A stretch of DNA of 64,000 bases from Takakia lepidozioides (taxonomy: Eukaryota; Plantae; Bryophyta): positions 82,150,001 through 82,214,000 of the forward strand of contig CM060731.1 in NCBI GenBank assembly GCA_030704615.1. Direction: 5' to 3'. Below, in pieces: positions 3,560 to 60,253 of the stretch (the stretch's first letter is position 1; each line of letters begins with the position of its first letter). Under the pieces are notes generated by a model. The model was not told where the DNA came from and ran no database searches. It saw only the letters and a list, made by a program, of their open reading frames with translations. Made by a program: the position numbers and the translations under genes.

Positions 3560-4108
3560 TAATTAATTTAATCGGTGGGTCAATTACAATACCCGATGCA
3601 ACAACATCAGAGTGCTTCTGAGCATAAACACATATCATGTTGTTGATTTTATGTCGTAAGTATCGTCTGTCCAATCGACATCCGTAAATTCAAAGTAAGT
3701 ACATATAGATGTGTTTTACTGCCTGAGCATGAGGTTCTTGCGGCTGGGACATGAATCTGCTCACAACAATTACTACATATGTTATGTCGATTCTAGTATG
3801 AGTTAGAAAAATCAACTTGCTTTGGTAACGTATCATATCTGCAGGTGGACCCCCCGTGTCAGGAACAAGCTTGACCTTCTTAGGTAGTGATGTGTGAGTA
3901 GGATTGCAATCGGAAAATCCAAATTTCTTCAACATCTTGACCTTGATGTATTGTCTCTGAGTAACCATAATTCCCTCATCCACAAATATAATTTCTAGTC
4001 CAAGTGAGTATGACAAGAGTCCTAAATCTCGAACTCTTTTTGAATTTCTTCTTATATCAATGTTATGTACGTTCATCATGGTTAACAGTAAGGTATATAT
4101 CATCAACA
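3560..4108 (-). pseudogene. Ty1/Copia reverse transcriptase remnant, 3' part
   Basis: Translates to Copia RT motifs (VDDIY; DLGLLSYSLGLEI; LTHTRIDITYVVIVVSRFMSQPQEPHAQAVKHI); frameshifted. Confidence 0.85.
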
Positions 4109-4748
4109 TGTCACGGACATAGCCCAGAGGAACTTACCAAGAGTAAATACCAAAAGTTATCAAGTTACCATGTTATCATAAATTACCATAATTTACCATG
4201 ATCTACCATGAATTACCATTAGTTTCCAAATAATCGAGAGTTTATCAAATTACCGAGAGTAACTTGAGAAACTGCTCAGGAAGTTTCATTTGGAAGAAAC
4301 TTCTCCATCAAGATACCTCATTTGCTTAAGGAAACTTCTCCATCAAGAAACCTTTGTTTAACCTTGAAAACTCATCCATCAAGAAACCTCCATTGGGGAA
4401 GCTTCTCAGGGAACTTCCTAGTAGCCAGTATATATAGGAGGCGAGATTGGACACTCTTTAGTTTCGCCAACACAAGTTCAAGCTACTCTTGTTTCCAGTT
4501 CCAGTACTCCAGTTCAGCTTCCAGTACTCTAGCCTAGTTTCCAGTATCTGGCGCTCTAGTTCAGTTTCCAGCATTCCAGTATTCAAGTCGAGTTCCAGTA
4601 TCTTGTACTCTTGTTCATTGTTATAAAGATCATCTTGATTCATGTTTACTCATCATGCATTCGGCCACGCCGACCTTAACTTCTTGTCTAATCTTGTACC
4701 TCTAGTCCGATCTCTTGTTTGTGTTCAGTCATGTTCTCGTCCTTGACA
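4109..4748 (+). repeat. 5' LTR of chromovirus-type Ty3/Gypsy element
   Basis: Starts TGTCAC and ends TTGACA; TATA at ~4429; preceded by CAACA (4104-4108); homologous to the reverse complement of 30537-31162. Confidence 0.9.
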
Positions 4749-4786: not shown

Positions 4787-7700
4787 ATGGAAGGCACATT
4801 TGCGGAAATTGTCGCCACCTTACAAAGTTTTCAGCTCCAGATGCAAGAACTTCGTACCTCTACCGTCCAGTTACAAGCTGATCAGTCTCAAGATCTTGAC
4901 AACGCTCTCCACAATTTGCAACAACAAATTTCAGAGTTAAAGGAGTCGAACAATGGATCTTCAACTATATGAGTCCCTAATGCAACAGCTCCTACTACAA
5001 CGGTTCCTCTTCAACAGATTACGAGAGAACCAAATATTAGCATGCCCGAGAAATTTGATGGGACGAGATCAAGATTTCATGGTTTTGTTCAACAAGTATG
5101 ACTGTTCCTACGACTACATCCACAACGCTACCCCGATGAAGGTATTCAAGTGGGATTCGTAGGCACCCTTCTATCAGGCACTGTGGTTTGCACCGCTATT
5201 AGAAAAAAAAATTCGCATTCCGAGTTCACTGTAACGTTTGGAGAGAATGATAGAGAGAGAGTTGTAGAGACAAAGATGCGAAATCTTCGATAAAGAGCAC
5301 GTCCTGCTTCCGTTTATGCTGCCACCAAATTTCGACAACTTGCGTGCGACCTCGACTGGAATGAGAAGAGCCTCATTAGTCAGTTTCGATGTGGACTAAA
5401 GAATGATGTAAAAGATTTGTTGCTGACAATGCCAAACGTGAACACACTGAGCGAATTCATCACCCAAGTCATTGCATGCGATAATCGTTTGTTCGAAAGA
5501 CGTCAAGAGAAGCAATCTGGATGGTCGACGACGCATCATGCCACTGCTACTACGGCACCAAACACAACGATCCATCAGACATCCGGTAATGATCATATGC
5601 AGATTGATGTTGTCCGATTCAAGCCATTGACGTCACAAGAAAAACAAAGACGACGCTTGAATGGATTATGCCTCTATTGCGGAGAAGAAGATCACATAAC
5701 GTCTAACTGCCCCAACAAGAGAAGATTCAAAGCTCGAGACGCAACTCAAGTATTCGATACGAGGATGTTGGAAAACGAAGATGTTCAGTTACAGTAGGGA
5801 CCATGCGGCTGGACATCACAAATTTCTCACAGAAAAAATATCTCTTTCTACCTCTAGACCTTGCACCTTGCTTCACAGTTCCGGTAAAAATCAGAATGCA
5901 AAATCGAGATATCTCTATAGAAGCACTTTTGGACTTAGGGGCTTCAGCATGTTTTATTGACAAAAACTTTGCGAAGCAATACAATTTAACGTTCGTAAAG
6001 AAAAAACTATCGGCCCCCGTTAAAGTCATCGATGGACGACCGTTATCATTAGTAAATGTTGACCATGAAACTCGACCACTTGAAGTGAAGCTTAAAGATC
6101 AAGCATCACATATTGTTTTCAACGTCATCCAGTCTCCAACGAATCTTGTGATCATTGGACTTCCCTGGTTCGTACTTCACAATCCTGACATCGACTAGCG
6201 ATCATGAAAAATTTCTGCAAGACTAAAATGTAGAAATATCAAAGGTATTCAACCCCTGTTCCTTGGAGCTAGAGCTTTTATGAGAGCTACCAAAAAAGAT
6301 GTGGCATTTGCACTTTATGCGACTCCGATCAAGACCATAACAGACAAGGGTACTTCAACATTACCCACTCAATATCAAGATTTCAAGGATGTCTTCGAGA
6401 AGAAAAATGCAGATATATTGTCAGAACACCGACCTTATGATTGTGCAATTGAGTTACAAGAAGGAGCCCAACCACCATTTGGCCCAATCTATAACTTATC
6501 CCAGACGGAGTTGGCTGCATTATGTGAATACATTGATGAAAATTTGTCGAAGAACTTCATCCGACATTCAAAATCACATGCGGGGGCGCCTATCTTGTTT
6601 GTGAAAAAGAAGGACGGATCATTACGCACGTGTGTAGACTATCGCGGTCTCAACAAAGTCATAATTAAGAATCGTTATCTGTTGCCACTGATTTCTGGAC
6701 TTCTCGACCAGCTGGGACGAGCCAAGATTTTTACCAAAATTAACTTGAGATGAGCTTATAACCTTGTACGGATAAAAGAATGAGACGAATGGAAAACAAC
6801 TTTTCGAACAAAGTATGGACATTTTGAATACATTGTTATGCATTTCGGTCTTACAAAAGCTCCAGTAATTTTCCAACATAGATGAATGACATATTTTGAG
6901 AATTTTTAGATGACTTTGTAGTCATCTATTTGGACGACATCTTGATATTTTCACAGAATGAAGAAGAACATGACCGCCATGTACGCCTTGTCCTTGATAA
7001 ATTAAGAGAAAGATGATTATATGTCAAGTTAAAAAAATGTCTTTTCCATCAATCTGATGTCGAATTTCTGGGCTACATTATTTGCGACAAATGCGTCTTT
7101 ATGGATCAGAAGAAAATACAAACCATCATCGAGTGAATTAAACCAACTTCGGTCCGAGATGTACAATGTTTTCTAGGATTTGCAAATTTCTATAGAATCT
7201 TCATCAAGGACTATTCCAAAATTGCTGCACCATTGACACAACTCACAGGGAATGACAAATTTGTATGGGACGAGAAGGCTGACCAAACATTTGAAAAGTT
7301 GAAACAGATATTTACAAAGGCTCCAATATTGGTACATGCAGACCTATCTAAACCATTCTTTTTTGAAGCAGATGCATCGGATTTTGCACTTGACGCTGTA
7401 CTCTCTCAACACGGTACGGATGGCCAACTTCACCATGTTGGTTTTCGTTCTCACAAATTTTCCGCTGCGGAGATCAATTATGAAATCCATGACAAAAAAC
7501 TTCTGGCGATTATCGATGCTTTTGAAGAGTGGTGTCATTTATTGGAGGGAGCTAAACATCAAGTCACTGTCTACACCGATCACAAAAACCTCGAGTATTT
7601 TATGAGTGCTCGTGTTTTGAATCGACGTCAAGCGAGATGGAGTATGTCCCTAGCAAGGTTTGATTTTGTTATTATCTACATCTTCAAGGAAAACCAGATG

Positions 7701-8457
7701 CTCTTTCTCGACGATCGTATCTTGCGCCAAAAAAATGGGACACAGTTTTCGACCAACAGAAATCCATCATCTTAAAACCAGCAAATCTCCAATTGAATAT
7801 GTTATCTATGTCCACCTATGACGATGCAGAGATTATAAAGGAGATTCAGGAAGCACTGAAGAACGACCAATTTGCTAAAACACTACGAAGTCAACTAAAG
7901 CAACCCCAAGACCACCCACATGTTACGAACGATTTCGAATTCAAAGATGACTTATTTTACTTCAAGGGACTTCTTTATGTACCTCCAGGACCTATACGAC
8001 TTCGAATTCTTCAAACAGGTCATGATTTTTTGGCTGTAGGACATTTCGGCTTCAACAAAACAATGGAACTGATATCCAGGGACTATTGCCGGCCGCAGAT
8101 GTAGAAACTCGTGAAAGAGTTTATAAAATCTTGCGATACGTGTGCTAGAGCGAATGGACCACGACATCGACCTTACAGTCTTCTTCAACCATTACCCATT
8201 CCCAAGGGTCCATGGTCGTCCATGTCTATGGACTTTATTACGGACCTTCCAATTTCCAAGATCCGATTCCATCCTTGTTATTGTGGATCGTTTTAAGAAG
8301 ATGACACATTTCATTCCATGTAATAAGACGGTTATAGGCGAGGAAACTGCAAGACTCTTCCTCAACAATATCTACCGCATTCATGGACTCCCGAAGGACA
8401 TCATATCTGATTGAGGACCACAGTTGATATCGAATTTCTGGAGGGGATTATTTCACA
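4787..8457 (+). pseudogene. Degenerate gag-pol (Gag zinc knuckle, protease, RT, RNase H, integrase N-terminal half) of a chromovirus-type Gypsy
   Basis: CLYCGEEDHITSNC; ALLDLGASACFI; [10 protein letters not shown]...[15 protein letters not shown]; YLDDILI; FEADASDFAL...TDHKNL; GHFGFNKT, WSSMSMDFITDLP, IISD. Many stops and frameshifts; breaks at FWRGLFH. Confidence 0.92.
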
Positions 8458-11259: not shown

Positions 11260-11643
11260 AATTGGCTCGTGCATTATCATCAAGAACCGGAGCAAAGATG
11301 GTACACGGAAGAGTGAACAGCCGCACATCGTCACTTTGAGTCGCTCCAATATTCTTAAACATAGCATAAGTAGATTCCTCTCTTCAGAACTACTGCACTA
11401 GGCGCTCATATTCAGCATGGAACGCCGGCAAGAAACTCACATGCATCAATAGCATGTATGTAGATATTAAATACATAACAGGAAAAAAGAAAAAACAGAA
11501 ATAAAAGTAAGCAACCAAGACATGATATGAATTTACTTACAATCTAGACATCCAATTGAGATGCTCCATCTGCAACAGTTAGTTCAAATCGTTGCTCCAC
11601 CTGACTACGGACTCCACAACCACAACAATGGTAGCTTTTTCAA
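11260..11643 (-). pseudogene. Distal part of an interrupted OB-fold/RPA-like pseudogene (target of the methyltransferase element)
   Basis: The reading frame HEKF|EKATIVVVVESV runs across the empty site when 11644-23687 and one TCAA are removed. Confidence 0.35.
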
Positions 11644-11728
11644 TGTCGTGCGCATACATATCGCTACACAACTACATCGTTGTCCAAACCACACCACACA
11701 TATATGCACAATAAAGTAGTCTACCACA
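11644..11728 (-). repeat. LTR segment A, extra terminal copy (85 bp)
   Basis: Matches 12092-12176 except for one visible substitution (tgtcgtgcg versus tgtcatgcg). Confidence 0.95.
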
Positions 11729-11729
11729 A

Positions 11730-12176
11730 TGAAAAGAAAGCTAACAAATGACACTGCTCTCCACACAAGAAACAATGTGAAATCCAAAACCATCACTCTT
11801 TAAAACAGTAGTCGAGCCAGGGGCACCCCAAGCTATGGGGACTCCACCCCACAACAACCTACACTCCCATCATGAGTACACTCAGATCTAAACGCACACA
11901 GGAGCTCGGTCGCGCAGGCTCAACTCGAGAGAGATGAGCTGCGCGACTGCCGCTCTCGTGAAGATAAGACGGACCAGGTGTCAAACTAAACTTGACACCT
12001 GATTTAACACTTGACCTAAATCCAAGTGTTAAATACAAATAACTAGTTTTATGCTAGCTGTTTTCACACTGTGCTTATTTAACTTGACAGCTGTCATGCG
12101 CATACATATCGCTACACAACTACATCGTTGTCCAAACCACACCACACATATATGCACAATAAAGTAGTCTACCACA
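11730..12176 (-). repeat. Complete 3' LTR (segment A + GC + segment B)
   Basis: On the minus strand it begins TGTGGTAG just after the PPT and ends TTTTCA. Contains palindrome TGACAGCTGTCA at 12085-12096. Segment B (11730-12089) matches 23328-23687. Confidence 0.9.
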
Positions 12177-12177
12177 A

Positions 12178-12190
12178 TCGCCCCCCTAGC
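12178..12190 (-). promoter_or_regulatory. Polypurine tract
   Basis: Minus strand gctaggggggcga immediately precedes T-TGTGGTAG. Confidence 0.75.
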
Positions 12191-12435
12191 TGGTGGATAG
12201 GTCCCTCTACCTCCAGATAGCTACAAGACGTAATAGCCATAGCCGTACTAAGTCCTCTATCACTGTCCCTATCGTACTCAAACTCTATAGACCAAGAGGC
12301 CGGGTACAAGAATAGCCCCATCGTTAGTCGCCGTCTTGCAATCTGTGAACTTGAGCCAGGACTTCGTGTATTCAAGGTCTCATGTAGCTGGGCCTTGCGT
12401 TGCTTGTTAGCCTCCCATGGTTGTATCCACTCCCA

Positions 12436-15411
12436 CTATCCAATGCATTGTGGACATAACCAATCCCCATCTGGAACCATCTCAAGAGGTGGAGTCAAGC
12501 ACCCCATATGCCAACCTCTAGAGCATCGATCACACACCAGCATGGTGGCTGCCCCTTTAGCAGACCCACACAACATGCACCTCAAACCTGCAGATACCAC
12601 TGCCAGGTTTGGGTCAATCCTGCCATCGACATTCGGAAGGTGACATGGCGCACAATTACGCACATGGTCCTTCCAAGTTATGCCATCCCGACCCTCCAAG
12701 ACCAAGACGCCTGAGGGCAAGACCTCTCGAACCCTCAAAATAACACGTCCTGCAGTCACATCCAGGGTCGTAGGAGCAGTCTGCTGCAGATAGACATAGT
12801 CACCAGGGTTGAATCTCCGAACCCCAGGACGATAGCCCCCACCACGTATGGTAGCATACCTCAACGTATCACGGTGTTGTGCAATGGCAAGGTTCTCGAA
12901 AGCCATGGGCATGACTCTCTTGAACAACTCTGCACGCTGCTCACATGCACGTGCCCACACGTCCGGATCGTCAAGGTTAAGAACTGTAGCAGCTTCTCTG
13001 CGAATGGATGTAGGCAAATCCGGCTCTCGGCCAAAGAGAAGAAAGTATGGTGAGAAGGAGGCAAGTGATGCTTGCTTGCTGAACCTGTAGCCCATGGCTA
13101 ACCAGGGTAACTGAAGGTCCCAATCTCCTAGGTGTCCCTTCTGCAAGCCATACTTGCGCAAACCCCTCTTTACTGTCTGAACAACTCTCTCTGCCAAGCC
13201 ATCGGCCTCAGGATGATCCCGAGAAGTGGTGCGGTGGTCTATCAAGGCCTTGTCACACAAAGCCTGAAACTCCCCCAAGAACTCTCTCCCTTGGTCCGTG
13301 AGTACCTCAGCTGGAGCACCGAATCGGCTAAGCACACAATCCAAGAATGCATACGCAGCTCCCTCACTAGCCTTATCAGGCAATGGAACCAATTCAATCC
13401 ACTTGGAGAAGTGCTCCACCATCACCAACACGTACTTGTTGTGGCGCATGGTCAGTGGCAACGGCCCTGCGAAGTCAAGACTCCACCTGTAGCCCAATCC
13501 CATGATCGGAAGAGGGTGCAATTGTGGAGTAGGGGCGTTGAATGAAGCACGCACCCTGTCACACACCATGCACCTAGCCACAAATTGTTGCACCTCTGTG
13601 TGCATACCACGCCACCAATACTGCCCCTGCAGTAGGCTATGGGTGCGTCGCACCCCAAAATGCCCCAACTCCTCGTGGGCATGCCGCACTAACCGTGCCC
13701 GCTGTGTTGGGTGAGGCACAATCCTCACTCGACCATCCTCCCACACTCGGAGCAGGTGTGTCCCCTCCCACTTGAACCTCTTGGCTTGTTGTAGGATCCG
13801 ATCCCTCTCCTTGGCAGTCACAGTGGCTGCCGTGTCTCCAGTGCGGAGGTAGTCCAACACAACTGAATCCTCATGTATATCTTTGGCGCCACCTTGCTCA
13901 TTGCTGGCCTCCGGGTCCTCAGACACTTGATCTACAGTCATCCCTGTTGCAGGTCCAACCTGGCCTTCCGCTGCCAAGATACACAGAAATGCAGATGCAT
14001 GCCATCCGGGCACCATCTCCTCGTCCGTCTCACCATGCCACCGAGCTCCAGTGTCATCCTGCTGGCTCGTGCATGGATTGCGACTCAACCCATCTGCATT
14101 GCGATTGACCAAACCCGGTCGATGCACCACCTGAAAGTCATACTCTTGAAGGATGAGTGCCCACCGTGCAAGCTTCCCCGTAAGCTTGTCTGACTCCATC
14201 AACCACTTGAGTGGTTGGTGATCTGTGACAAGGGTGAAGAGATTGCCGTATAGATAGCACCTGAAGTGTGCCACGGCCCACACTGCAGCTAAGCATTCTC
14301 CCTCATATGAGCTATACTTAGACTCTGCAGCATTGTTCGAGCGGCTAGCATAAGCCACTACAAACTCTCTTCCCTCATCATCCACCTGTGTGAGCACCGC
14401 TCCAAGCCCCAGCATGCTCCAATCTGTATGCAGCTGAAAAGGACGCCCCCTGATAGGTCGTCTCAAGATGGGCGCCGAGGTCAACCTCGCCTTGAGCTCT
14501 TGAAAAGCTTGTTCTTGCTCATCTTCCCACTGCCACTCCTGGTCCACCTTGGTCAGCTTGGTTAGAGCCTTTGCAATGGCACTAAATCCCTTAACAAACC
14601 GTCTGTAATAGTTTGCTAACCCCATGAAAGCTCGAACTCGGCTCACATCCGTGGGGCGTGGAACCTGTGCAATGGACTCTACCTTAGTCTGTTGTACCCC
14701 CAATCCTCCAGGATATATCATGTGACCCAGATACTCAATCTGGTTGTGGAAAAACTTGCACTTGCCCGGATGTAACTTCAATCTGTGCGTCCTCAAACGC
14801 TCAAATACCCCCTGAAGGTGTCTCTCATGCTCCTCCACCGTAGCACTAAAGATGATGATGTCATCTATGTAGCACCGAGCAAACTCCACCCCTGCTAGAA
14901 TCCTGTCCATGACTCTTTGAAACTCAGCGGGAGCGTTTTTAAGCCCAAATGGTAAGAACCGCCACTGGTATAGGCAATCCTTCCCGTGCTCATTGATCCC
15001 CCAGAATGCCGTCTTTTGCTTATCCACCTCCTTGATTGGCAACTGGTGATATCCGGATCGTAAATCCAACGTGCTAAAGACCTTGGAATGCCCAATGGCA
15101 TCAAAGATCTCCTCTGGTGTCGGCATGGCATACCTATCGGACTTGGTCTGATGATTTACAGGCCGGTAATCACCGCACATACGTCTCTCCGTCCAATTGC
15201 CATAGACATCCTTCTTGGCTGGCATCACTGTGGCTGAAGCATACTCTCCACCAGAGAGCTCCACCAAACCTGCCTCCCAGAGATCTTGAGTCCTCATCTG
15301 AATCAAAGACCTCTCCATGTCACTGTATCTATAGGGTCTCCGAAATATTGGCGTGTCAGTGGCCAACTCAATACGGATCTCTTGACCCTTCAGTGCTCCC
15401 AAGTCTTTCAA
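12436..15411 (-). CDS. pol: Pol: RT - RNase H - DDE integrase - C-terminal PHD finger
   Basis: 991-aa open ORF: LDLRSGYHQ, LPFGLKNAP, YIDDII; LHTDWS, TDHQPL, NADGLSR; HEELGH..CMVC, WSLDF, LTDQG, LAER. C4HC3 PHD CMLC..CDRC..WHMGC..WLCPQC at ~12439-12585. Confidence 0.96.
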   Translation of the reverse strand: MKDLGALKGQEIRIELATDTPIFRRPYRYSDMERSLIQMRTQDLWEAGLVELSGGEYASATVMPAKKDVYGNWTERRMCGDYRPVNHQTKSDRYAMPTPEEIFDAIGHSKVFSTLDLRSGYHQLPIKEVDKQKTAFWGINEHGKDCLYQWRFLPFGLKNAPAEFQRVMDRILAGVEFARCYIDDIIIFSATVEEHERHLQGVFERLRTHRLKLHPGKCKFFHNQIEYLGHMIYPGGLGVQQTKVESIAQVPRPTDVSRVRAFMGLANYYRRFVKGFSAIAKALTKLTKVDQEWQWEDEQEQAFQELKARLTSAPILRRPIRGRPFQLHTDWSMLGLGAVLTQVDDEGREFVVAYASRSNNAAESKYSSYEGECLAAVWAVAHFRCYLYGNLFTLVTDHQPLKWLMESDKLTGKLARWALILQEYDFQVVHRPGLVNRNADGLSRNPCTSQQDDTGARWHGETDEEMVPGWHASAFLCILAAEGQVGPATGMTVDQVSEDPEASNEQGGAKDIHEDSVVLDYLRTGDTAATVTAKERDRILQQAKRFKWEGTHLLRVWEDGRVRIVPHPTQRARLVRHAHEELGHFGVRRTHSLLQGQYWWRGMHTEVQQFVARCMVCDRVRASFNAPTPQLHPLPIMGLGYRWSLDFAGPLPLTMRHNKYVLVMVEHFSKWIELVPLPDKASEGAAYAFLDCVLSRFGAPAEVLTDQGREFLGEFQALCDKALIDHRTTSRDHPEADGLAERVVQTVKRGLRKYGLQKGHLGDWDLQLPWLAMGYRFSKQASLASFSPYFLLFGREPDLPTSIRREAATVLNLDDPDVWARACEQRAELFKRVMPMAFENLAIAQHRDTLRYATIRGGGYRPGVRRFNPGDYVYLQQTAPTTLDVTAGRVILRVREVLPSGVLVLEGRDGITWKDHVRNCAPCHLPNVDGRIDPNLAVVSAGLRCMLCGSAKGAATMLVCDRCSRGWHMGCLTPPLEMVPDGDWLCPQCIG

Positions 15412-15440
15412 ACTGAAGGCAAAGCAATTCCTGTAAACCC

Positions 15441-16868
15441 TCAGGAACCGCCGTATACGTCGTCTCTCTCCTCCGGTGACAATGGGTCCAATGTCAGGCT
15501 CCCAATTGTCCTCCGTAACTGCAACCTTAAGTCCAGTGGGCTTAGAGGTAGAGGACGCGTCCCGTGGTTGCTATGCTGCAACCTTTGAGCAGTACTCCCT
15601 TCCTGCTCAGTCAATGACAAGGCCTCATCCTGCCCCATCATCTCATCATTGAGAACCTCCTCATCCCGAGAAGAATCCCCAACCTCATCCATCACAGCTG
15701 CCTTGGCTGTCAACTCCCTCTGAACCTCGAGCACCTCCCACGTGTGCCATGGATGTCTACACCCCGTGGTCCTCACCGGCTCGCCCCCACTCGCTGCCTG
15801 TACCGTCTCGGTAGGCAGAGAGACCATCAAGGGAAGTGCACTTTGCACTCTACGTTGCTCAGCCATAGCCAAGCTGATAATCCAGGTCAAGCAATTGAGA
15901 TCCATTGCTTGCCCCAACACCTGACACCGTGATGCCTCAGAAAGAGAAGGCACCGCCGTGGTCCCAGTGGAAAACCCCATAGCCCGCTCTCGCTCGTCGG
16001 CATTAGGCTCCACTAACTGCTGCAACTGAGCATCCCACAGGAGGCCAGGTCCACCATCCCGAAAAGCATGGGATCCTGGGAAGCTGAGCAGTGTAGGTAA
16101 TGCTGCTCGTGGTTGACCCACCCTATTGACCACTGCCAAAGGCGAACGGTCATCGTGTCTCACACGTTGAGACTGCCTCCCTGTGTCCAAAATGCCATCC
16201 ACGGTAAGGTGTGCTGGCCGCGGCACCCCATCAAATGCACGCTTGAGCAGTGCGGGTGGCATCAAGTTAGTCCACCATAGTCGTGGACGATGAGCCCGTG
16301 ACCCCACTGCAGCTGCATCCAGCAACACTGCTGACCCAAGCCACGACCGGACTTGATGCACACTGGCCATCACCCTGGCCCGAGAATCACCCATCAGTGG
16401 CACATTCTCCAAGATGTATGCTGAAGATACAGCTTGATGAAGTTGCAAGTAGCGCAAAATCCGCACCATCTCCCAAAACAGACCCGTCCTCGAGTCTCGC
16501 AATCCATTGCCATGCCCGGCTGATGAATGCCCTTGGCAGGGCCAACCTGCCACTACGAGATCAATGGAGCCAACCTGCTCCAAATCCTGCGCCCCCAGCA
16601 AAGAAATGTCTGCTGGCAAGGCTTGTTGGTATCCACGAACTGCAGACACTGGCAACAAGTCAGGGTATTGCTGTACCAACTGAGCAACATGGCGCAGTGA
16701 GACGCGTCGTGCAGTCTCATCCCTCTCCACATACAGGTAACGCCTTACCCGCACACCTGCCTGTAGCACAGCAGCCAATCCGGTGCTGATCCCGCCAAAC
16801 AAGTCCAGAAGGCAAATGCCTTCATCCGGATACTGCCACACAATAGGTGTGGTATCCAATGGTGACAA
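15441..16868 (-). CDS. C5 DNA cytosine methyltransferase domain (DNMT3-like motif order) between protease and RT
   Basis: Motif I LDLFGGIST, II YVERD, IV AGWPCQG (catalytic Cys present), VI ILENV, VIII AHRPRLWWTN, IX ERERAMGF, X VLGQAM. Domain ~15880-16820. Confidence 0.95.
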   Translation of the reverse strand: MSPLDTTPIVWQYPDEGICLLDLFGGISTGLAAVLQAGVRVRRYLYVERDETARRVSLRHVAQLVQQYPDLLPVSAVRGYQQALPADISLLGAQDLEQVGSIDLVVAGWPCQGHSSAGHGNGLRDSRTGLFWEMVRILRYLQLHQAVSSAYILENVPLMGDSRARVMASVHQVRSWLGSAVLLDAAAVGSRAHRPRLWWTNLMPPALLKRAFDGVPRPAHLTVDGILDTGRQSQRVRHDDRSPLAVVNRVGQPRAALPTLLSFPGSHAFRDGGPGLLWDAQLQQLVEPNADERERAMGFSTGTTAVPSLSEASRCQVLGQAMDLNCLTWIISLAMAEQRRVQSALPLMVSLPTETVQAASGGEPVRTTGCRHPWHTWEVLEVQRELTAKAAVMDEVGDSSRDEEVLNDEMMGQDEALSLTEQEGSTAQRLQHSNHGTRPLPLSPLDLRLQLRRTIGSLTLDPLSPEERDDVYGGS

Positions 16869-16927
16869 CTGAGGTGGTCCTGGTGCAATACCCGCACTCT
16901 TCTCCTCTCCTGACGGTACAAAAGCCT

Positions 16928-17460
16928 CTACCCAGGCTTGCCATGCATGTCATCTTGCTTTACTGGAGGTGGCACATCCTCTGCATGGGCATTGCCTTCC
17001 AGCAACTCTCCAGGCCAACTAACTGCAGCTATAAAGGCGGCTAGTGTTGGCATCTTGCCCCGCTGGGCAGCCGCTATACCCCCAATGAATGTCACAGGGA
17101 GCTGTGCACGGCGACCATCGCCTGACTGCCATCTAGGCCTGTAGGATGCTGACTCCTCCCAAAAGTCTAGGGTGAAGCCCATGGGGTATAACACTGCCCC
17201 ACCAACGAGGACATCGTAAGAGACCGCGTCTGTCACAATGGCCTTGGCTCGCATTACTGAACCATCGATAGGATGATCCGGCTGCAGTCTAATGGCCAAC
17301 TGATGCCGTGTCATGCCCCGAGCCTGCTCTGATCCTCCCAGAGATGTCTGTATCTGGAAAGGACAAGGCTCCATATCCGCCTCCATGAGGCCCAAACCTG
17401 CAATAGCAGCTCTGCCTAACATCAGTGGCTGGCTCCCGAGTCCAACAAGACCCGCAGTGG
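16928..17460 (-). CDS. Retroviral-type aspartic protease (frameshift right after the active site)
   Basis: VLLDSGA ends ORF 17422-19008 and continues as MLGRAA...YDVLVGGAVL in ORF 16928-17422. Adding one base gives DSGAQPLMLG. Confidence 0.85.
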
Positions 17461-19683
17461 CCGGTACTTCTTGCCTGCCGGTCCACTCAAAGTGAAAATG
17501 CCTCCCTGGTTGTCTAACAAGACAACTCCAGGTGTCACTGTGGCGCGCTCAAAGGCTGGCCTAGCTGGCAGCTCCGTCAATCTGGCAGCTGCAGCTTGCC
17601 AGGGCACTGCCGTGGCAGTCTTGACCCTCAAATCCGAGGATCCCTCTGCCACTACACCTTCCACTAACTCCGCAGAAGATGAAGTGACCTCCCCACTCTC
17701 ACAGAGTGTTGCTGCTAGTCTGAACACTGCAGCTGGTCTCACTCCCGGCGTCGCAATCATGGTTGCCGAGAACAGTGGGGCTTGACACACAGAGGTGGCT
17801 GCCCCCAACAACACACCGGCTGCACTAGCCTTGGTAGCAGGTGTCAGTGCTGCACGTGTAGCTCTCCCCAATGGCATAGTAACCTCCGCCTTGGTAACAG
17901 TCGGGCGAGAACTAGGTGCCATGGATGGCGTCGACACAGTCTCCGCCAATGTGAATGACTGAGGAAGCCTCGCCTGACGGCTTGCCTCCCCACGCTGTGG
18001 ATCCAATTCCACCTCTGCACCTCGTGGCTCAGGAACTCGTGCTGCTCCTCGAGTCACGGCTGCAGCAGACTCCACCTGCTCTAGTGGTAGTGCTGCTTTG
18101 CACATAAATCCCATGCCTCCCATATCTCCTCCCTCAGGAGCAGGAGGTGGGCCATCCCGCCTGGGAGCCGGTACCGCCTGAGCTATAGCCATGACAGCGA
18201 GCCTCTGCTCTAGCTGTTGAAGCCGGTTGGCCATGCCTTGATCAACACCCTGACCTCCGCGTCCTTGGCCATGTTGAGCTTGCCCTTGGCCTGCACCTCG
18301 TGCCCGACCACCTCGTCCTCTCTGGGCTGGTCCACCTTGCCCCCAGCCACCATTGTTCCCTTGGAACTGGCCTGGGCGCAACTCAGGATGCAAGTCATAA
18401 CACTGGGCATCTCCATGCCCATACTTGCCACAATGCCCACACTGCAACTGTGCAGGCTGTGCTTGTGCCGGCCTTCTGCCACCCTCTGGGCAATCTCTCT
18501 TGACATGGGGTCCTCCACATGTCCAACATATCACCCCTGGTTGCTGTTGGCCTGCAAAAGACGCCACGGGCCTCTGCACCTGAGGTCCCCTGTAAGCTCC
18601 ATGGAACTTGGGCTGGGCAGCCTTGCCCCCCTGACCACGCTGTTGGGCAATCCCTTGTGCCTGTGGGCTGACAGCTGTGCCCCGTGCAGGTATGTCCTTG
18701 CCAAATCCAATTGTAACAACTCGCTCCTCCACCATGTTGAGCTCAATCCGCTCAGCCAGCAGAAACACATCTGCTAATGTGGGTTGGGCTGCTTGTAACA
18801 GGGTTGCATCTCGCACCCTTCTTTTGAGCTCCTTGTCCAGAATTCCATACCAAAACTGGATTGCCTGAGCTTCAGTAACCCCTTGGGTCACACTTATCAA
18901 GCGCCTCATACGAGTGTACGCCTCTTGCAGGCTCTCACTGGGTTTGTGCTGGAAATCTTGCAAACTTCGCAGCTTCTCTGTCCGTACGCCTTGGTAGTTC
19001 CTCCGCAACTCCTAGAAGAACTCCACCACCGGGTTGAATCTAGGCACATGTGTTGTAGTCATGGCAGGAGGAGTAGTAGCACCTTTTGAACTGGTACCAC
19101 CTGTAGAAGCACCAGCACTACTTGCTCCACTACTAGTGCTGGCAGTGGGAGCTACTGGTACTGATGCAGCTACTAGTCGCGTCGTGCCTCGAGTAATGGA
19201 GACGTAGTCAGGTGACCAATACATCCTCCACTCCTCAATCTCTGCTTCATGTCCTCGCCTGAACTCGTGGTAATCGTCCATAGGCGGGCCTTCCAAATGC
19301 TGGAACAGTCCCTTCCACGCCATGAATGGGGTGAATAGCTGTGGATTGCGCATCTGCTGCAAATCACACCAGCTGTCGAACTCCTGGATAAAGTCATCCA
19401 ACTCGATTGTGCCCACAGCTCCAGAGTACCTACGAGGCCCCTTGGTAGCTCCATACATCTCCTTCATGTCGTCCCACAACAATGGCGAATGAAAGTGCAC
19501 ACCAGTTGATGAAGCCTCCGAGTCTGTGTCTGACTCTACAGTAATTGAGGGTGGCGGTGAAGGTGGTCTGAACCGAATACCTCGTCTTGTGAACCCACTC
19601 TCACTGTTACTGCCTGTAGCCGTACTCCCCTCAAAACCCTTGGGTAACTCCGTAATGACACTCACAATGTGCACCTCCTCCAC
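17422..19683 (-). CDS. gag: Gag with two zinc knuckles; one in-frame TAG at 19012-19014
   Basis: RRYSG..ELDDFIQEF; FQHKPSESLQEAYTR..QFWYG; CWTCGGPHVKRDC and CGHCGKYGHGDAQC. The two ORFs are in the same frame (FF*ELRRNY). Confidence 0.88.
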
Positions 19684-20202
19684 GTGACACTATAAGGCTC
19701 TAGTACTAATCTAATAGTGACACGGGTGGGCACCTGTTGCAGTTTAAGGGTCATATCCCAATGGCTCAGGGCACCTGCACCTGCATCCACCGCAAGAACT
19801 CCTATGGTTGGCTGGTCATCAACCCAGCCTCACCATAGAAGAAACACTGGTGGTCTTGCTGCTCATCACTCCAGCCTCACCACCGACAACATACTCTAGG
19901 ATTGACCGGTGATCAAATCCGGCCTAATCCCTATGAAAGCAAGCGCCCACACAAAACCAACATGGCGCACAGTCAAGCATGCAGGTGTTGGGGGGGATCC
20001 AAACACAAGAAATCAAAACATCAACACCCCCACACCAAAATCCAGCAGCAACGCTGATCCTGCAGAATATCCCAGCCCAAAGCCCCGGACTGACTGGCCT
20101 CCACCAAGAGAGGCTTTGGCAACTACGAGTACAAGGTAATGAAAATAGTACAGAGATGGAGGGGAAGAATAGAAGCCCGCCCAAGCAAGATCTAATCCTG
20201 AT

Positions 20203-20952
20203 CTATGCTATCAACTTCCAGACTTCTCTCAAAGTGCCTCGCTCTGCATGATGGTAAGGTGTAGGAGGTATATCTATGTCCAGAAACCTGCCACTAACCT
20301 TGTCCCAAGCTACAGTAGCTCGCTCTAACCAACCCTCCTCCTCTTTCTGCCAGGTAGAGACAAAGCAATACTCTGCTATCTCCCGCTCACTGAACACTAA
20401 AGAAAACAAAGGTAGGGTCTGATAGTCTCTCAACTCGAAAGCTTTGAGACGGTTGCGGGTATCCTCATTGCGAATGGCTGCATCTCCTTCACGCACAACA
20501 AACATGTCATTGCTGATGAACCCCCGCTCGTGGTTGCCCTGTGCAGAGCGTATCCGGCTGCAACCATGTCTGATTGCACAAACTTGTGTAGCTCCTGCTC
20601 CTCTGCTCCAGTATACCACGGCCTTGTGGCTGAACACCTTGGTCCCCAGGGCTGTCTTTGGCTGTGTTCCAAGCCTAGCTTTCACCCACTTTGGTATTTC
20701 ACCTAAAGTTGCAGAACTGCTGGCTCCAACAGAGTTCTGACTGTCCAAGGCGATATTGAGGCCCTCAATGCCAACTACAGCAGTCTGTTGTCTACTGCTA
20801 ATGCCTGACTCCCAGTATGCAATCAACTCGTCCAACTGTTCTCCACTCAAATCAGTCTGAGTTCCTTGGGAAACATAAATCTTGTCCCCTTTGGTGCACA
20901 GGCTAAGAGAAGAGACATGCCCTTCAACGACGTCCTCATTTCCCCCAGCCAT
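20203..20952 (-). CDS. Additional sense ORF upstream of gag, unknown function (249 aa)
   Basis: ATG-initiated uninterrupted ORF inside the element with globular-looking composition; no motif recognised. Confidence 0.5.
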   Translation of the reverse strand: MAGGNEDVVEGHVSSLSLCTKGDKIYVSQGTQTDLSGEQLDELIAYWESGISSRQQTAVVGIEGLNIALDSQNSVGASSSATLGEIPKWVKARLGTQPKTALGTKVFSHKAVVYWSRGAGATQVCAIRHGCSRIRSAQGNHERGFISNDMFVVREGDAAIRNEDTRNRLKAFELRDYQTLPLFSLVFSEREIAEYCFVSTWQKEEEGWLERATVAWDKVSGRFLDIDIPPTPYHHAERGTLREVWKLIA

Positions 20953-21438
20953 ACAAGGAGTACATCCACAGATTTGTCTCTAATATAGACCAGCACAGGT
21001 TCTAGAAACAGGATTGTGGATCTTTCATGGCACGCTCACACTCTAAAAATTCCATACATTTTTAGCAAAGTCCCAAAAACAGAAACCAAGTCTAGATAGG
21101 TAGATTTCCCCTTTCTGCAGCTATCCCCTCAAAAACTGAGTCAAACGGAGCTCATTTGACAAAGATATGACCAACCAGGCTCTTTAAACATTTAAATTAG
21201 ATCAAAAAGGTTTTTTTTTTTTTTTTTTAACACCAAAACGCTTTTGCCATTACAACCTGTTCCCAGGTTATCTACGAGTTCCCGAGGTCGTTCCCCTCCA
21301 GGATTCTCCAGGCACCAAGAGCTCGTTAATTCCAAAACTCGACCTCAGTTGGGTGGGGTATCACACCCTGGAGGCGACTTGCTTTTCTCTGCGCGTGGGC
21401 CTGCCTCCTCGAGCTTTCACGACGGCACGGCAGCAGCC

Positions 21439-21480
21439 ATGTTTACGGCACGCAGGAAGATTCAGAAGGAGAAGGGGGCG
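21439..21480 (+). pseudogene. Captured N-terminal fragment of 40S ribosomal protein S7 (eS7)
   Basis: MFTARRKIQKEKG resembles the plant RPS7 N-terminus; only ~14 codons. Confidence 0.6.
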
Positions 21481-21654
21481 ATTCTTCCCAGTGAACCCTC
21501 GAGAGACGAGTCCCGTGTATCAGCAGGTGCTGGAGATGCTCGAGATCTAGAATTGCTGTGAAATGGGCTTCCAGTGCTCGCCCTGCGAGGGCTTGGATTG
21601 CCTTGTGTGGATTGCCCTCTTCAGAACAGCTTGATGCAAGGCACTGTAAGCTGC

Positions 21655-21765
21655 TGATTCGCTATCCAGTGATGGAAAGAGTGGTGTGGCTGGGGTGTCA
21701 ATAGCCAGTCGTAGTCATTCTTGTCTATATCAGCATTGAGCAAGTCGCTCCCCACTCCTTTTCGC
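21655..21765 (-). pseudogene. Captured fragment of a plant basic proline-rich (BPP-like) protein gene
   Basis: LLNADIDKNDYDWLLTP followed, after a frameshift, by ATPLFPSLD; this is a conserved plant motif. Confidence 0.65.
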
Positions 21766-21775
21766 TTGTGGAAAG

Positions 21776-22105
21776 GATTGTGGAAGACGAGCGCGTTGCC
21801 ATCAAAATGGCGGAGTTTGTTCGATTGAACACACTCGGTGTATCCCAGGATGCACAAGCCCGGGCAACCACCTTACTCCGGACACTCATGACTGGCTACG
21901 CGCAACTGGCTGTCGAGTACGGGGGACTGATGGACGCGACGAAGCAGCCCTTCTTCCATTATGGCCAGGCGGTGATGGAGGAGAGATGGAAGAAGCTGCG
22001 GCAGAAGTTGGAGGGCAGCACGCGCTTCGCTTTGCCTGATTATGACCCCTTACACTGTTCCTTCTTGGGAAAGATGTTTCGGCCCAACCCAGCTTTTGTA
22101 TGGCC
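21776..22105 (+). pseudogene. Captured intronless fragment of an alliinase/TAA1-TAR family aminotransferase
   Basis: MAEFVRLNTLGVSQDAQARA...FFHYGQAVMEERWKKL...CSF...PNPAFVW resembles the alliinase C-terminal domain. Confidence 0.75.
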
Positions 22106-23313
22106 GCGTTCAACCAGTTCTTCACCTCAGATACAAACCAGTTGCCCCCTGAGCCAGGTTGGCACCAATTACAGACTAGGTTGCACACAAAAACATTGGA
22201 GGAGTGAACTTCGTTCCTTTTCTCAACTGTGCATCACCAGTCGCAATCCATAGCAACAGCCCTTTCATAAGGAACAGAGACACAAGTCCCCAAAGAGCAC
22301 ATGAAACCACATGCAGGTGAAGGTGATCTGCCTACAATTTGCTGTCACAGCCTTGAGGCAACAGCCACAACATACCCATTGGAAGGAGCAGAAATGGTCT
22401 TGTGCATTTCAGAGCTTTCCTGGAGAACTCGTCTGACCATCCTTCTGCTACAATTGTGCATGTTGCTTGTACTAGATTGTTGCAGAAGCTACCTGCAAGT
22501 GGACAGAGTGGCATTTAGCATTTGCAGCTGACCCCTACAACCTCGCAAGCATCTTGTCAAGAAAGCTGATGCATTCGGTAAAGCCACGTTGCGCTGTGAA
22601 CTGCCTCCACAGCTGAGCCTCTGCTTCATTCAGTCTGGCAACGCCATTCTCTTCCCTGCAACAAAATCTTCTGCATCGTCCTCATCTCCTCATCGCAGAA
22701 TGGTGTGGCAGACGAGAACTCTCATGTCGCCACTGCTTAGGGCTGCTCCACGGACCTCAAAGCAGATTGATCAAGATTGCCCACACCAGTACAACCTGAC
22801 GCAGGCCCTTCTGAAGATGTCGCAACAAACTACAAACTGACTCTCTCACAGCCTCAAAAATACGGTAGCGGCTGTCAGCTCCAAGATTGAGTCCCTAGCA
22901 TAGCTTGAATGAGACGCATAGTTGTGGTTGAGAGCCTTGGACAGACGAAAAGACCCGACTTCCCCAACAATGCAAGAGCCCACAGAGAAAATAGAAGAAT
23001 GTGGGGATCTGCATATCTCTTGGACTCAGTACTCCACTAGATGACCCAAAAGACTGAGGACACAGTACGGTCGCCGTGCAAACCAGAAACAACATCTGTG
23101 CTCAGTCCACTGCTCGTAGCAACAGCATTCCATTGCTTGCTGCATCAGTATTGACCCCTTGCACATCTAGCTTCCAGCGAGCCTTGGCTACTCCTTCAAA
23201 CGTGATAGCGTTGCTCCTTCTGCTGGGCAGACTCATAGATTACCAAGTTATATTATAATAGTGCTAAAATAAAAAAACATCATATCTAGCTTAGCACTAG
23301 AAAACTAGATAGA

Positions 23314-23327
23314 TCATCTCTCTCGAG
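23314..23327 (-). promoter_or_regulatory. Self-complementary primer binding site
   Basis: tcatctctctcgag abuts the LTR end and is the exact reverse complement of ctcgagagagatga at 23522-23535 (and 11924-11937). Confidence 0.8.
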
Positions 23328-23687
23328 TGAAAAGAAAGCTAACAAATGACACTGCTCTCCACACAAGAAACAATGTGAAATCCAAAACCATCACTCTTTA
23401 AAACAGTAGTCGAGCCAGGGGCACCCCAAGCTATGGGGACTCCACCCCACAACAACCTACACTCCCATCATGAGTACACTCAGATCTAAACGCACACAGG
23501 AGCTCGGTCGTACAGGCTCAACTCGAGAGAGATGAGCTGCGCGACTGCCGCTCTCGTGAAGATAAGACGGACCAGGTGTCAAACTAAACTTGACACCTGA
23601 TTTAACACTTGACCTAAATCCAAGTGTTAAATACAAATAACTAGTTTTATGCTAGCTGTTTTCACACTGTGCTTATTTAACTTGACA
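23328..23687 (-). repeat. 5' terminal repeat: LTR segment B only (360 bp)
   Basis: Matches 11730-12089 (visible difference cgtacagg versus cgcgcagg); segment A is absent. Confidence 0.95.
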
Positions 23688-24124
23688 TCAAACTTCTCAT
23701 GAAAATGCTTGGAGAAGGCAATGATGATATCTTTGTGTAAGAAATTCAGTACCAGAGGATTGTGAAACGGCGGGATGACCTACACAACAGTAGCTGAGGT
23801 GATCTTCAGGCAGTACATCAGATCCTCTTTTTCAAACTTCAACTTAGGACGCACTGAAAAGTCCTCCAAACGCACACAGGAGCCCTTGTCGAACTTGTCA
23901 GAATGAGCTGGGACAAGGGAGCCTGAGATTGTAACATTAACGGTGGTGAACCTAAGGCGACCTGTCAAATCACAGTACAAGTAGGACCAGGTGTTGGAAG
24001 AATCCAGGACAGTGGGTTTGTTGACATTGTCGTAGCGACTCAAGACCAAACCCTCAAAAGCAGCATCTCTCACAGTGAGGTCTAAATCGTCTTCCAAAAG
24101 TATGGGACGTTCACGCTTGACCAT
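23688..24124 (-). pseudogene. OB-fold/RPA70-like pseudogene, possibly Helitron-derived, proximal part
   Basis: FDKGSCVRLEDFSVRPK..ITSATVV resembles RPA-type OB folds; contains a stop; continues at 11643. Confidence 0.35.
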
Positions 24125-30536: not shown

Positions 30537-31162
30537 TGTCAATGACAAGAACATGACTGAATACAAACAAGAGATCGGACTAAAGGTACAAAACTAGACA
30601 AGAAGTCAAGGTCGGCGTGACCGAATGCATAATGAGTAAACATGAATCAAGATGATCTTTATAACAATGAACAAGAGTACAAGATACTCGAACTCGACTT
30701 GAACACTGGAATGCTGGAAACTGGAGTGCCAGATACTGCAAACTGGGCTAGAGTACTGGAAGCTGAACTGAAGTATTGGAACTGGAAACAAGAGTAGCTT
30801 GAACTTGTGTTGGCGAGACTGAAGAGTCCAGTTTCGCCTCCTATATATACTGGCTACTAGGAAGTTCCCTAAGAAGCTTCCCCAATGGAGTTTTCTTGAT
30901 GGAGAAATTTCCTTGAACAAAGGAGATATCTTGATGTAGAAGTTTCTTCCAAATGAAGCTTCCTGAGCAATTTCCCAAGTTACTTTTGGTAATTTGATAA
31001 ATTCCAGGTAATTTGATAACTAATGGTAACTAATGGTAACTAATGGTAACTCGTGATAGATCATGATAAATCACGATAAATTATGGTAATTTAAGGTAAC
31101 ATGATAACTTCATAACTTCAGTATTTACTCCTGATAAGTTCCTCTGGGTTATGTCCGTGATA
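30537..31162 (-). repeat. 3' LTR of the chromovirus-type Gypsy, inverted relative to its 5' LTR
   Basis: Reverse-complement homologue of 4109-4748. PPT gatgagggggtga (minus) at ~31163-31175. Flanked by TGTTG (CAACA on minus) at 30532-30536. Confidence 0.9.
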
Positions 31163-31749
31163 TCACCCCCTCATCTAGCGTCGAGTTTTCTCGAGGAGCG
31201 GTAAAATCTTGGACTTGCTTAGAGTTGGAGAAAATCCAAAATCCGGCGTATGATACTTGCCAAGTATTCGGCTCTTCGTTCTTGACTCAAATGATTTATA
31301 GGTCCCTGCAACCATCGATAGTGTCCAACACCTTGAACTTGGGACCACGCAGTGATTTGAGTATTCTGATTTTTTAAGCTGCCTTCAAACATGATTTCGT
31401 TGCCCTCTAGGTCCGAAGCCTCAACCTCCAACAGAATTATCAGACTTCGAATAGGCTCCACTTGCCGTTGTACAGGGTCCAGACGAGGAAGTACACGTCG
31501 CATTGGTAGTCCATCGTCTCGAGAGCGTCGGTGTGATGGGCTGATCTGGTAGTTGGGATAGCGACAGCTCTAATGTATCTGGTCCTGTGACTTCATGCTG
31601 CTAATACAAGATGCAAGAGTGATGGAAGTGTAGCTATATATACCGATGTGTGGTGCTTCTCCCTCCTTAACGTGTATCAGGTACACTGAATGTGGAGTCT
31701 TAACCTTAAAGCTAACTTGGCTGACATCATCGTTGTGACGTCTTATTGA

Positions 31750-33082: not shown

Positions 33083-34320
33083 CTAACCCATTAATATTAC
33101 AGAGCCTCCTCCCAAACGGCTTGCAGTCAAGGCATGTGTTCGAAGATGCCTTCGGTTACCACAACCACTTGCAACGATCTCCGCACCAGATGAAACGGAA
33201 ATACTTTCGGAGAACTCGAACCTAGTAGTAATATTATCATCCGAAATGTTACTTGGAATTCTACTTGTTGAATCTTTTGATACCCTTGAAGCCTGCCGGG
33301 AAGCCCGCCATTCTTGCCAATCACGAAGCTCTTCTTCTTCTTTTCGAATTCGCTCATTGAATGTGACTGGGCAAAACAATTTTTCATATGACAAATGTCA
33401 GCTGAAATGTGGAACATTTGTAGAAAAAATGATAAAGTAAAAGTGCAAGTGGAAGACACTTTCAAGATCAAATTCTCCATAAACAACAAACAGTGGGATA
33501 AGTACATACCAAGGTAATCAGGTTCCTTTTGTTGTGGGATCCAAACACGAGGATCAACATATCTTCCATACCAAGCCCAATAGGCATGGTCACGACCAAT
33601 AGGCTTACGAGAACACTTGGCAGAGTTCTCGCTGATGTAATCTACGACTGTTGAAGCTGCAGCCATTTTCAATATATATGGCCACACAGCTTTTGTCATA
33701 TCATCCAGGTCAACCAATCCCTTTGGTGATGGCTTGTATGAAATATGAAAGAATCCAGTATTTGGTGGGTTTCGGAGGGCCTTTGATGGCTCATCATCAA
33801 CAAAGAGTATTTGTCTCTGCGTTGCAAAGGGTGTACCAGGGTACTTGGCAAGAACAGTGCGAATATCCTTAACGAGATATTTCATCCCAGGCATAATATA
33901 ACCGGTAGTGTCTTTGCAATCCTCAGCTGACCAGATGAAGCAAAACTTCTTCGCAATTTTCGTAGGAACTAAGCACTCGAGCATCCTACAAAGAACATGT
34001 CTTTCAGCACATGACCAGATCGCCACATGAAAATGCATGAACGCAAGGTTGAGAAACTCCAAGACTCCAGGCCGGGGAACCACAAAAGGTCTTTCGGGAA
34101 CATGAACTGTAACTTTCCTGAAACGAAATCTCTCCTTAAACAATTCACCGCCGGTTGGAGGTGGCCGGTAGCAAAGAAGACCGTTGACACTCAATATTAA
34201 CAGCATCCATTTCCTCTTCCCCGATGTTGCAAATGAAGGTTGATGGACGATACCAACCTGCGCAATTTAAGTGTTCCCGCCGTCAGAAACAACACAATGT
34301 AGTGTTTCTTAGTTTCAGAG
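33083..34320 (-). CDS. FCP1/NIF-like HAD-fold protein 1 (multi-exon, motif I degenerate)
   Basis: LILSVNGLL, RPGVLEFL, HVAIWS, ILFVDDEPSKALRNPP; GT donor near 33508. Probable upstream exons at 34460-35480. Confidence 0.75.
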
Positions 34321-49360: not shown

Positions 49361-49362
49361 TT

Positions 49363-60250: not shown

Positions 60251-60253
60251 TAA

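Follow-up and report, generated by a model that had tools for sequence, protein, structure and literature searches.

The window (the whole 64-kb stretch of Takakia lepidozioides DNA analysed here) contains a Gypsy-type retrotransposon, a recently inserted and damaged member of a family with a DNMT3-like methyltransferase gene of its own. The identity of the element and its membership in the family are close to certain. An unbroken pol ORF of 1044 codons (12436..15570, minus strand) carries five Pfam domains on the same strand: RT (about 14,716-15,183; RVT_1, 3e-31), RNase H (14,140-14,529; RT_RNaseH, 8e-36), the H2C2 and DDE core of integrase (13,210-13,710; Integrase_H2C2, 4e-16; rve, 8e-14) and, C-terminal to integrase, a PHD finger (12,445-12,579; PHD, 1e-10). 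Upstream, also on the minus strand, are the methyltransferase domain (15855..16856), an aspartic protease region (16979..17601, with LLDSG near 17,440) and a gag region (17602..19689) that has Cys/His knuckle-like motifs and a long linker and resembles that of relatives. The protease region is split by a frame change and gave no Pfam match in this copy; unbroken relatives matched Asp_protease_2 weakly there (E 9e-5 to 5e-3). The gag region showed a weak match to Retrotrans_gag (E 0.0085) when its in-frame stop near 19,010 was read as X.

Lesions, passenger and age of the element

In addition to the stop in gag, frame changes near 17,430, 16,940 and 15,580 interrupt the window copy. Other copies, as represented by their contigs, deviate from it at all three frame changes or close by, so these look like lesions of this copy. 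A leader open frame of 258 codons (20203..20979, minus) lies in the high-depth part of the element and is here part of the repetitive family; it had no Pfam match and no counterpart in the related loci (the best 80 of 168). Between the leader and the 5' repeat there is a passenger of about 2 kb (21230..23313) with lower depth than the rest of the element and, on the element's strand, a poly(A) run at its end. Within it, and opposite to the element, lies an alliinase/tryptophan-aminotransferase-like fragment (21,705-22,253, plus), for which a moss protein was the best match (57 candidates, 2 matches). The passenger may itself be a low-copy repeat, or be carried in few copies, since its depth in run X1 was several-fold above that of the element's outer flanks. 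Depth over the methyltransferase domain was like that of the rest of the element; contig depths serve here only to separate the repetitive part from the passenger and do not measure copy number.

A contig of run X1 from another sample represents the empty site: it joins 11,639 to 23,688, and 4 letters fit both sides. All 12,044 bp form a single insertion, which that other sample lacks; a 4-bp target site duplication (TCAA, 11640..11643 and 23688..23691) flanks it. The insertion is young, because its repeats are nearly identical and the site is empty in another sample. The sequence-only reading had deduced a young insertion from nearly identical LTRs; the near identity (3/447 differences) and the age stood, but the 360-bp copies taken for LTRs make up one half of a split repeat (see below).

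Elsewhere in the window, a second, unrelated element of Gypsy order (gag, protease, RT, RNase H, integrase) occupies 48,269-60,803 on the plus strand. Its end repeats are 95-97% alike, and it has an extra frame of 1092 codons (56,496-59,774) with no Pfam match, and a tandem array of 30-bp units occupies 55,656-56,005; the RT of the DNMT element is 34% identical to its RT. Three frames at 33,127-37,506 (minus) matched NIF (NLI-interacting-factor-like phosphatase) in Pfam. Decayed PPR-like repeats at 39,100-39,750 (plus; Pfam match below cut-off), which we take to resemble the land-plant PLS type, are followed by short dispersed repeats to about 41,150. Two copies of one repeat, 81-94% alike and in opposite orientation, lie at 4,108-4,748 and 30,537-31,163; the former may also account for an RNase H fragment at 7,137-7,775.

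A DNMT3-like domain between protease and RT

The ORF at 15,441-16,949 (minus) matched Pfam DNA_methylase with E 1.5e-12. The domain is unrearranged and stop-free, with the catalytic Cys, Glu and Arg-x-Arg present and the motifs in linear order: LFGG (16,802), PCQ (16,541), ENV (16,409), RPR (16,289) and GQAMD (about 15,910). DRM, the plant RdDM methyltransferase, was rejected as an identity, its permuted motif order being absent. Employing the window domain as a phmmer query against solved structures, we found DNMT3A/B first (E 2.5e-10), then DRM (3e-6) and HhaI (4e-4); the family profile returned the same three at 1.6e-30, 3e-17 and 2e-9, and the alignment with DRM was confined to the N-terminal part of the query. 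The predicted model of the domain (pLDDT 96.1) had exclusively DNMT3 structures as its top Foldseek matches (TM 0.71/0.84) and matched DNA-bound DNMT3A over the whole length. The ranking agrees across sequence, profile and fold, with DNMT3A/B first, DRM second and bacterial enzymes last; matches in the Atlas were generic C5 methylase clusters only, the first of them eukaryotic. By its residues and modelled fold, the domain is a predicted C5 DNA methyltransferase. The sequence-only reading had described such an enzyme, DNMT3-like and linear with PCQ, ENV and RxR motifs, not DRM-permuted, and had placed it between protease and RT; both the description and the position, with the protease region upstream and RT, RNase H, integrase and PHD finger downstream, were borne out.

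Across related domains about 35-75% identical, the catalytic Cys (173/177), the Glu of ENV (177/177) and each Arg of RxR (175/177) are nearly invariant. The Pro before the catalytic Cys is replaced by Glu in 66/177; the window domain keeps PC. Between the window and related loci (among the best 80 of 168), dN/dS was 0.09 for DNMT (33/40 pairs unsaturated), 0.07 for RT (10/27 pairs unsaturated) and 0.07-0.08 over RT, RNase H and integrase, all near synonymous saturation (pS about 0.73). The value for DNMT, close to saturation as it is, lies below 1, the threshold that the sequence-only reading had named for a test. Mostly decayed copies, compared among one another in the same set of loci, gave dN/dS of 0.42-0.88 for DNMT, slightly above RT: 0.56 vs 0.45 for close loci at dS 0.1-0.3, and 0.42 vs 0.27 at dS above 0.3. 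Judged from these substitution patterns, the methyltransferase domain is under purifying selection.

The family in bryophytes and green algae

Of 168 related stretches from metagenomes we kept the best 80 and read domain order where neighbours were visible. The prevailing order in these loci was gag-PR-DNMT-RT-RH-IN-PHD; most of them represent one closely related family, and the counts are not independent. The DNMT is a family trait of the element. Its recurrence in the related loci, together with the single target duplication around the unit, contradicts the possibility considered at the outset that it was confined to this copy or had entered by a secondary insertion.

Marchantia, Calypogeia, Riccia and Sphagnum supplied the named close relatives, most of them about 60-75% identical; a Klebsormidium relative was 45% identical, Scenedesmus and Monoraphidium were further off, and no fern or seed-plant names appeared among the matches listed. 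Altogether 265 clusters (50% identity) scored below 1e-30 against the domain. In a tree of 37 hand-picked rows, the window domain fell into an 18-row clade (support 100/99) with all named liverwort and moss rows. This grouping, the PPR-like tract and the moss match of the passenger fragment make a land-plant host, rather than an algal one, the likeliest. The Klebsormidium relation named in the sequence-only reading is known indeed and is closer than that reading supposed: the K. nitens protein P0058 has the same PR-DNMT-RT-RH-IN order.

DNMT and RT were found in one chain in 68 proteins, DNMT preceding RT in 19 and lying between RNase H and integrase in 49; a PHD finger is present on integrase in both architectures. 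In a tree of 158 domains, the 64 after-protease domains (P0058 included) formed one clade apart from the 94 after-RNase-H domains (FastTree 0.992); the DNMT trees had no host DNMT3 or DRM sequences as root, and P0058 was on a long branch. One capture followed by a move and two separate captures are both compatible with trees lacking a host DNMT3 root. The after-RNase-H clade (proteins P0040-P0209) is large, and Glu-Cys often replaces Pro-Cys in it. Its named members, Scenedesmus and Monoraphidium, are chlorophytes only, outside the streptophyte range given in the literature as far as its text was available. Cluster names were Scenedesmus for one after-RNase-H cluster and cyanobacterial for P0236 and P0389; the latter two are probably mis-binned eukaryotic contigs. 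Viral contigs scanned with P0042 yielded no relative. Some related loci (L010, L012, L022, L007, L053 and others) are interrupted inside pol or DNMT by insertions of 0.8-1 kb, which are probably small elements nested there.

A conserved stop between DNMT and RT

The DNMT frame is separated from pol by a stop in a readthrough-type context, TAG CAA CCA (15565..15573, minus), which is in frame with pol and conserved in the family. Among the best 80 of 168 loci, the DNMT end and RT were both visible in 58, and a stop followed by CAR was present at one place in 52/58, compared with 21/751 for decay stops inside domains. DNMT and RT were in one frame in 40/58 loci, and 0/40 were stop-free between the two; PR and DNMT were in one frame in 45/51 loci of the same set. 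The one continuous gag-PR-DNMT-pol ORF that the sequence-only reading had envisaged is not supported: in this subclade the frame would be continuous only by readthrough of the stop, and the window copy also has the stop in gag and three frame changes. Single continuous chains exist in some other lineages (P0073, P0058).

The TMV-type readthrough signal is given as UAG CAR YYA in the text of PMC2754532, and the window stop matches it fully. Only 4/52 stop loci (among the best 80 of 168) have the full CAR-YYA context; 46/52 have CAA CCC. In most CAA CCC loci an in-frame ATG follows, which is absent from the window element and from the three divergent loci L023, L024 and L038. Because most CAA CCC stops precede such an ATG, re-initiation or splicing is possible at those loci. 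Going by the codon context, the Pol domains are probably made by readthrough of the TAG-CAR stop. Chains of gag-PR-DNMT without RT made up 31/212 proteins. Since the stop is conserved after DNMT and such chains occur, the methyltransferase likely belongs to ORF1 and is made at the Gag level.

Split repeats, junctions and self-priming

On the coding strand, the element has the layout A1-primer site-genes-PPT-B1-NN-A2-B2 inside the 4-bp target duplication. Repeat A1 (23328..23687, minus; 360 bp, beginning TGTC) forms the 5' end of the element, and A2 (11730..12089, minus; 360 bp, TG...CA) is 99.4% identical to it. B1 (12092..12178, minus) lies directly 3' of the polypurine tract (12177..12191, minus), the same tract preceding B1 in relatives, and B2 (11644..11730, minus; ending GACA) forms the 3' end. 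The A copies have 2 differences in 360 bp and the B copies 1 in 87 bp, all three at CpG. In its PR-RT-RH-IN order, DDE integrase, TG...CA ends and duplication of 4 bp (canonical range 4-6), the element agrees with Ty3/Gypsy (Metaviridae). The repeats depart from the canonical LTR pattern in that the polypurine tract adjoins B1, whereas A1 opens the element and B2 closes it. Both ends could be seen in 8 elements, namely the window element and those of 7 loci at 6 distinct sites; the 4-bp duplication was found in 8/8 of them, a 5-bp duplication in none.

The B1|A2 junction, which we propose as the integrase cut site, is a palindrome, TGACA-GC-TGTCA (12085..12096). In 13/13 rows listed, two of which had been found by searching that very pattern, this junction consisted of the element's right end, two variable bases and the element's left end. 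The 28 loci with a PHD match (among the best 80 of 168) comprised 9 with a full B-A-B 3' end, 11 with a single B, 1 with a B-A cut by the contig end, 2 divergent ones with the junction palindrome only and 5 with none. L057 (single B) and L071 (B-A-B) have nearly identical right flanks; recombination between B repeats can thus produce a single-B copy. Between insertions the A2|B2 junction is not constant: some have nothing or one base there, L017/L021 have 9 nt of the primer site plus 5, and L069 has an insert together with the last part of the polypurine tract. An A-B-A layout, with B before A at the 5' end, was seen at 0/20 visible 5' ends (17 distinct flanks). A distant PHD-bearing element (L067:14,640-17,230; integrase 48% identical), the 5' part of which falls outside the contig view, ends as tract-B-palindrome-A-B. 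Split repeats thus reach beyond the closest family.

The primer-binding site (23314..23327, minus) is of the self-priming type: its 14 nt are exactly complementary to 23,522-23,535 inside A1, and 0/1472 internal control 14-mers match. The sequence after A1 starts without TGG. With the criterion as described in the text of PMC6317226, a self-priming complement (9-mer within one mismatch) was found in 14/20 loci vs 22/600 controls.

Discussion

We propose that the methyltransferase is made with Gag and methylates the cDNA before integration, and that the DDE integrase cuts inside the repeat. For this explanation as a whole, we estimate a probability of roughly 0.55. Standing at the end of the gag-protease frame, the enzyme would likely be made in bulk and packaged with Gag; the protease would free it from Gag-PR-DNMT, and the enzyme would meet the newly made cDNA in the particle and methylate its cytosines ahead of integration. 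On cDNA as the substrate we would place even odds. RT, RNase H, integrase and the PHD finger would be made by readthrough of the TAG-CAR stop. Copies methylated beforehand would arrive resembling host heterochromatin, which might damp their recognition or their own further activity.

Self-primed reverse transcription as in Tf1 would give linear cDNA with one B-NN-A repeat per end. In retroelements, the primer site and the polypurine tract define the terminal repeat that is placed at both cDNA ends; because the primer site here follows A1 and the tract precedes B1, that repeat would be B-NN-A. The two cDNA ends, once joined, would form the variable A2|B2 junction. By cutting the upstream palindrome after CA on each strand, the DDE integrase would generate A1-genes-B1-NN-A2-B2 with a 4-bp duplication, and the integrated form would be the cDNA in circularly permuted order, with the upstream NN as the point of opening. 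In GACA-NN-TGTC, nicks behind CA on each strand would produce recessed CA-3' ends with 2-nt 5' overhangs. Such ends are what DDE integrases use. Cutting inside the repeat is the option that we moderately favour. A free two-repeat circle would offer two equal cut sites, and the missing A-B-A class (0/20 5' ends) misfits it. That class would not arise if linear cDNA were cut at the site near its left end and the loose ends were joined before or after strand transfer, or, as a speculation, if one palindrome were protected, perhaps by methylation.

The split repeats could instead be produced along a Ngaro/DIRS-like route, in which the RNA runs into B2, template switches rebuild the ends and the integrase uses ordinary linear ends with no internal cut. 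The layout is indeed that of the DIRS group (Fig. 4c legend, PMC5890265), and the absence of A-B-A is easier to explain without a symmetric circle. We nevertheless consider this route doubtful: a normal primer site after A1 and a normal polypurine tract before B1 define a B-NN-A terminal repeat, individual insertions have different A2|B2 junctions with remnants of primer site or tract, like freshly joined ends, and the 2-bp spacer fits the overhang from cutting after CA.

As to the substrate, the enzyme may act in the nucleus on integrated copies or the target region, with the PHD finger steering it to a chromatin state, in self-limitation or in manipulation of host silencing. The PHD finger on integrase in both DNMT architectures would suit such a role, and the ORF1 position would imply enzyme in large excess over what a few cDNA molecules require. 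However, the methyltransferase in this clade has no attached targeting domain, fusion to Gag-PR favours packaging according to established retroelement biology, and the methylome of Klebsormidium is described in the text of PMC5890265 as ordinary and plant-like despite such elements; we regard nuclear action as unlikely. Somewhat less probable still is a domain kept as a nucleic-acid-binding or structural part, or as an RNA methylase, that does not methylate DNA. The Pro-to-Glu replacement beside the catalytic Cys in relatives and the negative result with the Klebsormidium domain in yeast (text of PMC5890265) point that way. Against it, the catalytic Cys, Glu and Arg pair are nearly invariant, the window domain retains PC, its predicted model matches DNA-bound DNMT3A over the whole length, and related Symbiodinium retro-DNMT3 enzymes methylate CG (same source). 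That the methyltransferase is a chance passenger or secondary insertion, or the layout a nest of separate elements, is very improbable: the window copy is indeed damaged and contains an unrelated 2-kb passenger, but DNMT is found at this place also in related loci and in proteins of liverworts, mosses and Klebsormidium, its dN/dS is far below 1 and its depth like the rest of the element, and one target duplication surrounds the whole unit, with an empty-site contig to match.

Extending our proposal of cDNA methylation and an internal cut, we tentatively suggest a clade of PHD retrotransposons in the green lineage, from chlorophytes to land plants, in which the integrase would open an inherited palindrome in end-joined cDNA and a Gag-level DNMT3-like enzyme, found at two places in the polyprotein, would methylate the cDNA first and possibly choose the palindrome; this is a conjecture with the odds against it. 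If true, the internal-palindrome route would be an integration mode undescribed for LTR retrotransposons, and the split repeats bear on whether internal palindromes are a normal substrate of a DDE integrase. End-joined cDNA is usually regarded as a dead end; use of the internal palindrome would give it a role. The conserved stop, in turn, would predict the amount of enzyme made. In practical terms, elements with split repeats would be mis-delimited by LTR finders, and element-borne DNMTs could inflate DNMT counts in bryophyte annotations. A transposon with a host-type silencing enzyme was previously known from one charophyte and from dinoflagellates. Through the relatives in Marchantia and Sphagnum, the question of its purpose reaches plants for which genetics and methylomes exist, and the family, being young, polymorphic and repetitive, would offer unintegrated cDNA.

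Comparison with known systems

The closest described system is KnitGypsy-Dnmt3 of Klebsormidium nitens, reported as a retro-Dnmt3 in a Gypsy element under purifying selection (de Mendoza et al. 2018, text of PMC5890265), with repeats "the same as a DIRS retrotransposon" and Gypsy domains (Fig. 4c legend). The window element shares with it the unrearranged, intronless Dnmt3-like domain, the Gypsy order, the purifying selection and the DIRS-like repeats. P0058, which at 45% identity falls in the same after-protease DNMT clade as the window's domain, is presumably one of the copies in that report. Unlike KnitGypsy-Dnmt3, the window element resides in a land plant and has relatives in liverworts and mosses; its family ends the gag-PR frame with DNMT before a conserved stop, whereas an uninterrupted Pol ORF is given for KnitGypsy-Dnmt3 in that text. 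A PHD finger is present in the window element, with 0 mentions for KnitGypsy-Dnmt3 in the main text of PMC5890265, and that text describes for it none of the self-priming, target duplication and integration mechanism given here. In the same text, cDNA methylation was proposed for Symbiodinium DIRS elements, and SymbioDIRS-Dnmt3 was shown to methylate CG in yeast; the Klebsormidium enzyme gave no methylation there, a result called inconclusive by the authors, human DNMT3B having failed too.

EpiLTRs and DAM-LTRs are methyltransferase-bearing retrotransposons of DNMT4-like/DAM clades, presented in a preprint (bioRxiv 10.64898/2026.05.21.726589) whose accessible text lists "streptophytes (Gypsy-DNMT3)" without naming land plants. 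According to these sources, SymbioDIRS-Dnmt3, SymbioLINE-Dnmt, EpiLTRs and DAM-LTRs resemble our element as retrotransposon-borne methyltransferases for which cDNA self-methylation was proposed, and differ from it in element class or enzyme clade. PHD-bearing Gypsy-7a is known from Chlamydomonas (PMC10952607, PMC11982613, PMC12344493 and the Chlamydomonas v6 preprint), and the text seen of these sources contains nothing on these elements beyond Gypsy-7a. Our literature search, outside which lay figures, many supplements and subscription papers, found no description of land-plant members, conserved stop, self-priming or integration mechanism; land-plant members may already be shown in such places (2018 figures, supplements or earlier reports). 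DNMT in a Gypsy element is a known kind, and the conserved stop, the reach into land plants and the repeat mechanism were found undescribed in the literature searched.

The Ngaro/PAT/DIRS tyrosine-recombinase retrotransposons have split direct repeats in the order A1-genes-B1-A2-B2. This layout is shared by the window element, as is, likely, the circular permutation of the cDNA; unlike them, the element has a protease, H2C2, a DDE integrase, TG...CA ends and a 4-bp duplication. Membership in DIRS/Ngaro was rejected on the presence of the DDE integrase and protease, and no tyrosine recombinase match was found by Pfam in the element's ORFs. Troyka is likewise an atypical LTR element with Gypsy domain order; it was rejected, since the CG...CG ends, 3-bp duplication and restriction to animals given in the text of PMC12440569 do not fit the window element. 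In Tf1/sushi and Tcn1, the primer site is complementary to the inside of the 5' repeat and there is no TGG tRNA site, as here; they are chromoviruses with ordinary LTRs (text of PMC6317226), whereas the window element has a PHD end and split repeats. For the proposed integration step, the nearest parallel is foamy virus, the integrase of which cleaves the palindromic LTR-LTR junction of 2-LTR circles to give processed ends (text of PMC1180852). There, the cut site is the LTR-LTR junction; the site proposed here would lie inside the repeat and be inherited with it.
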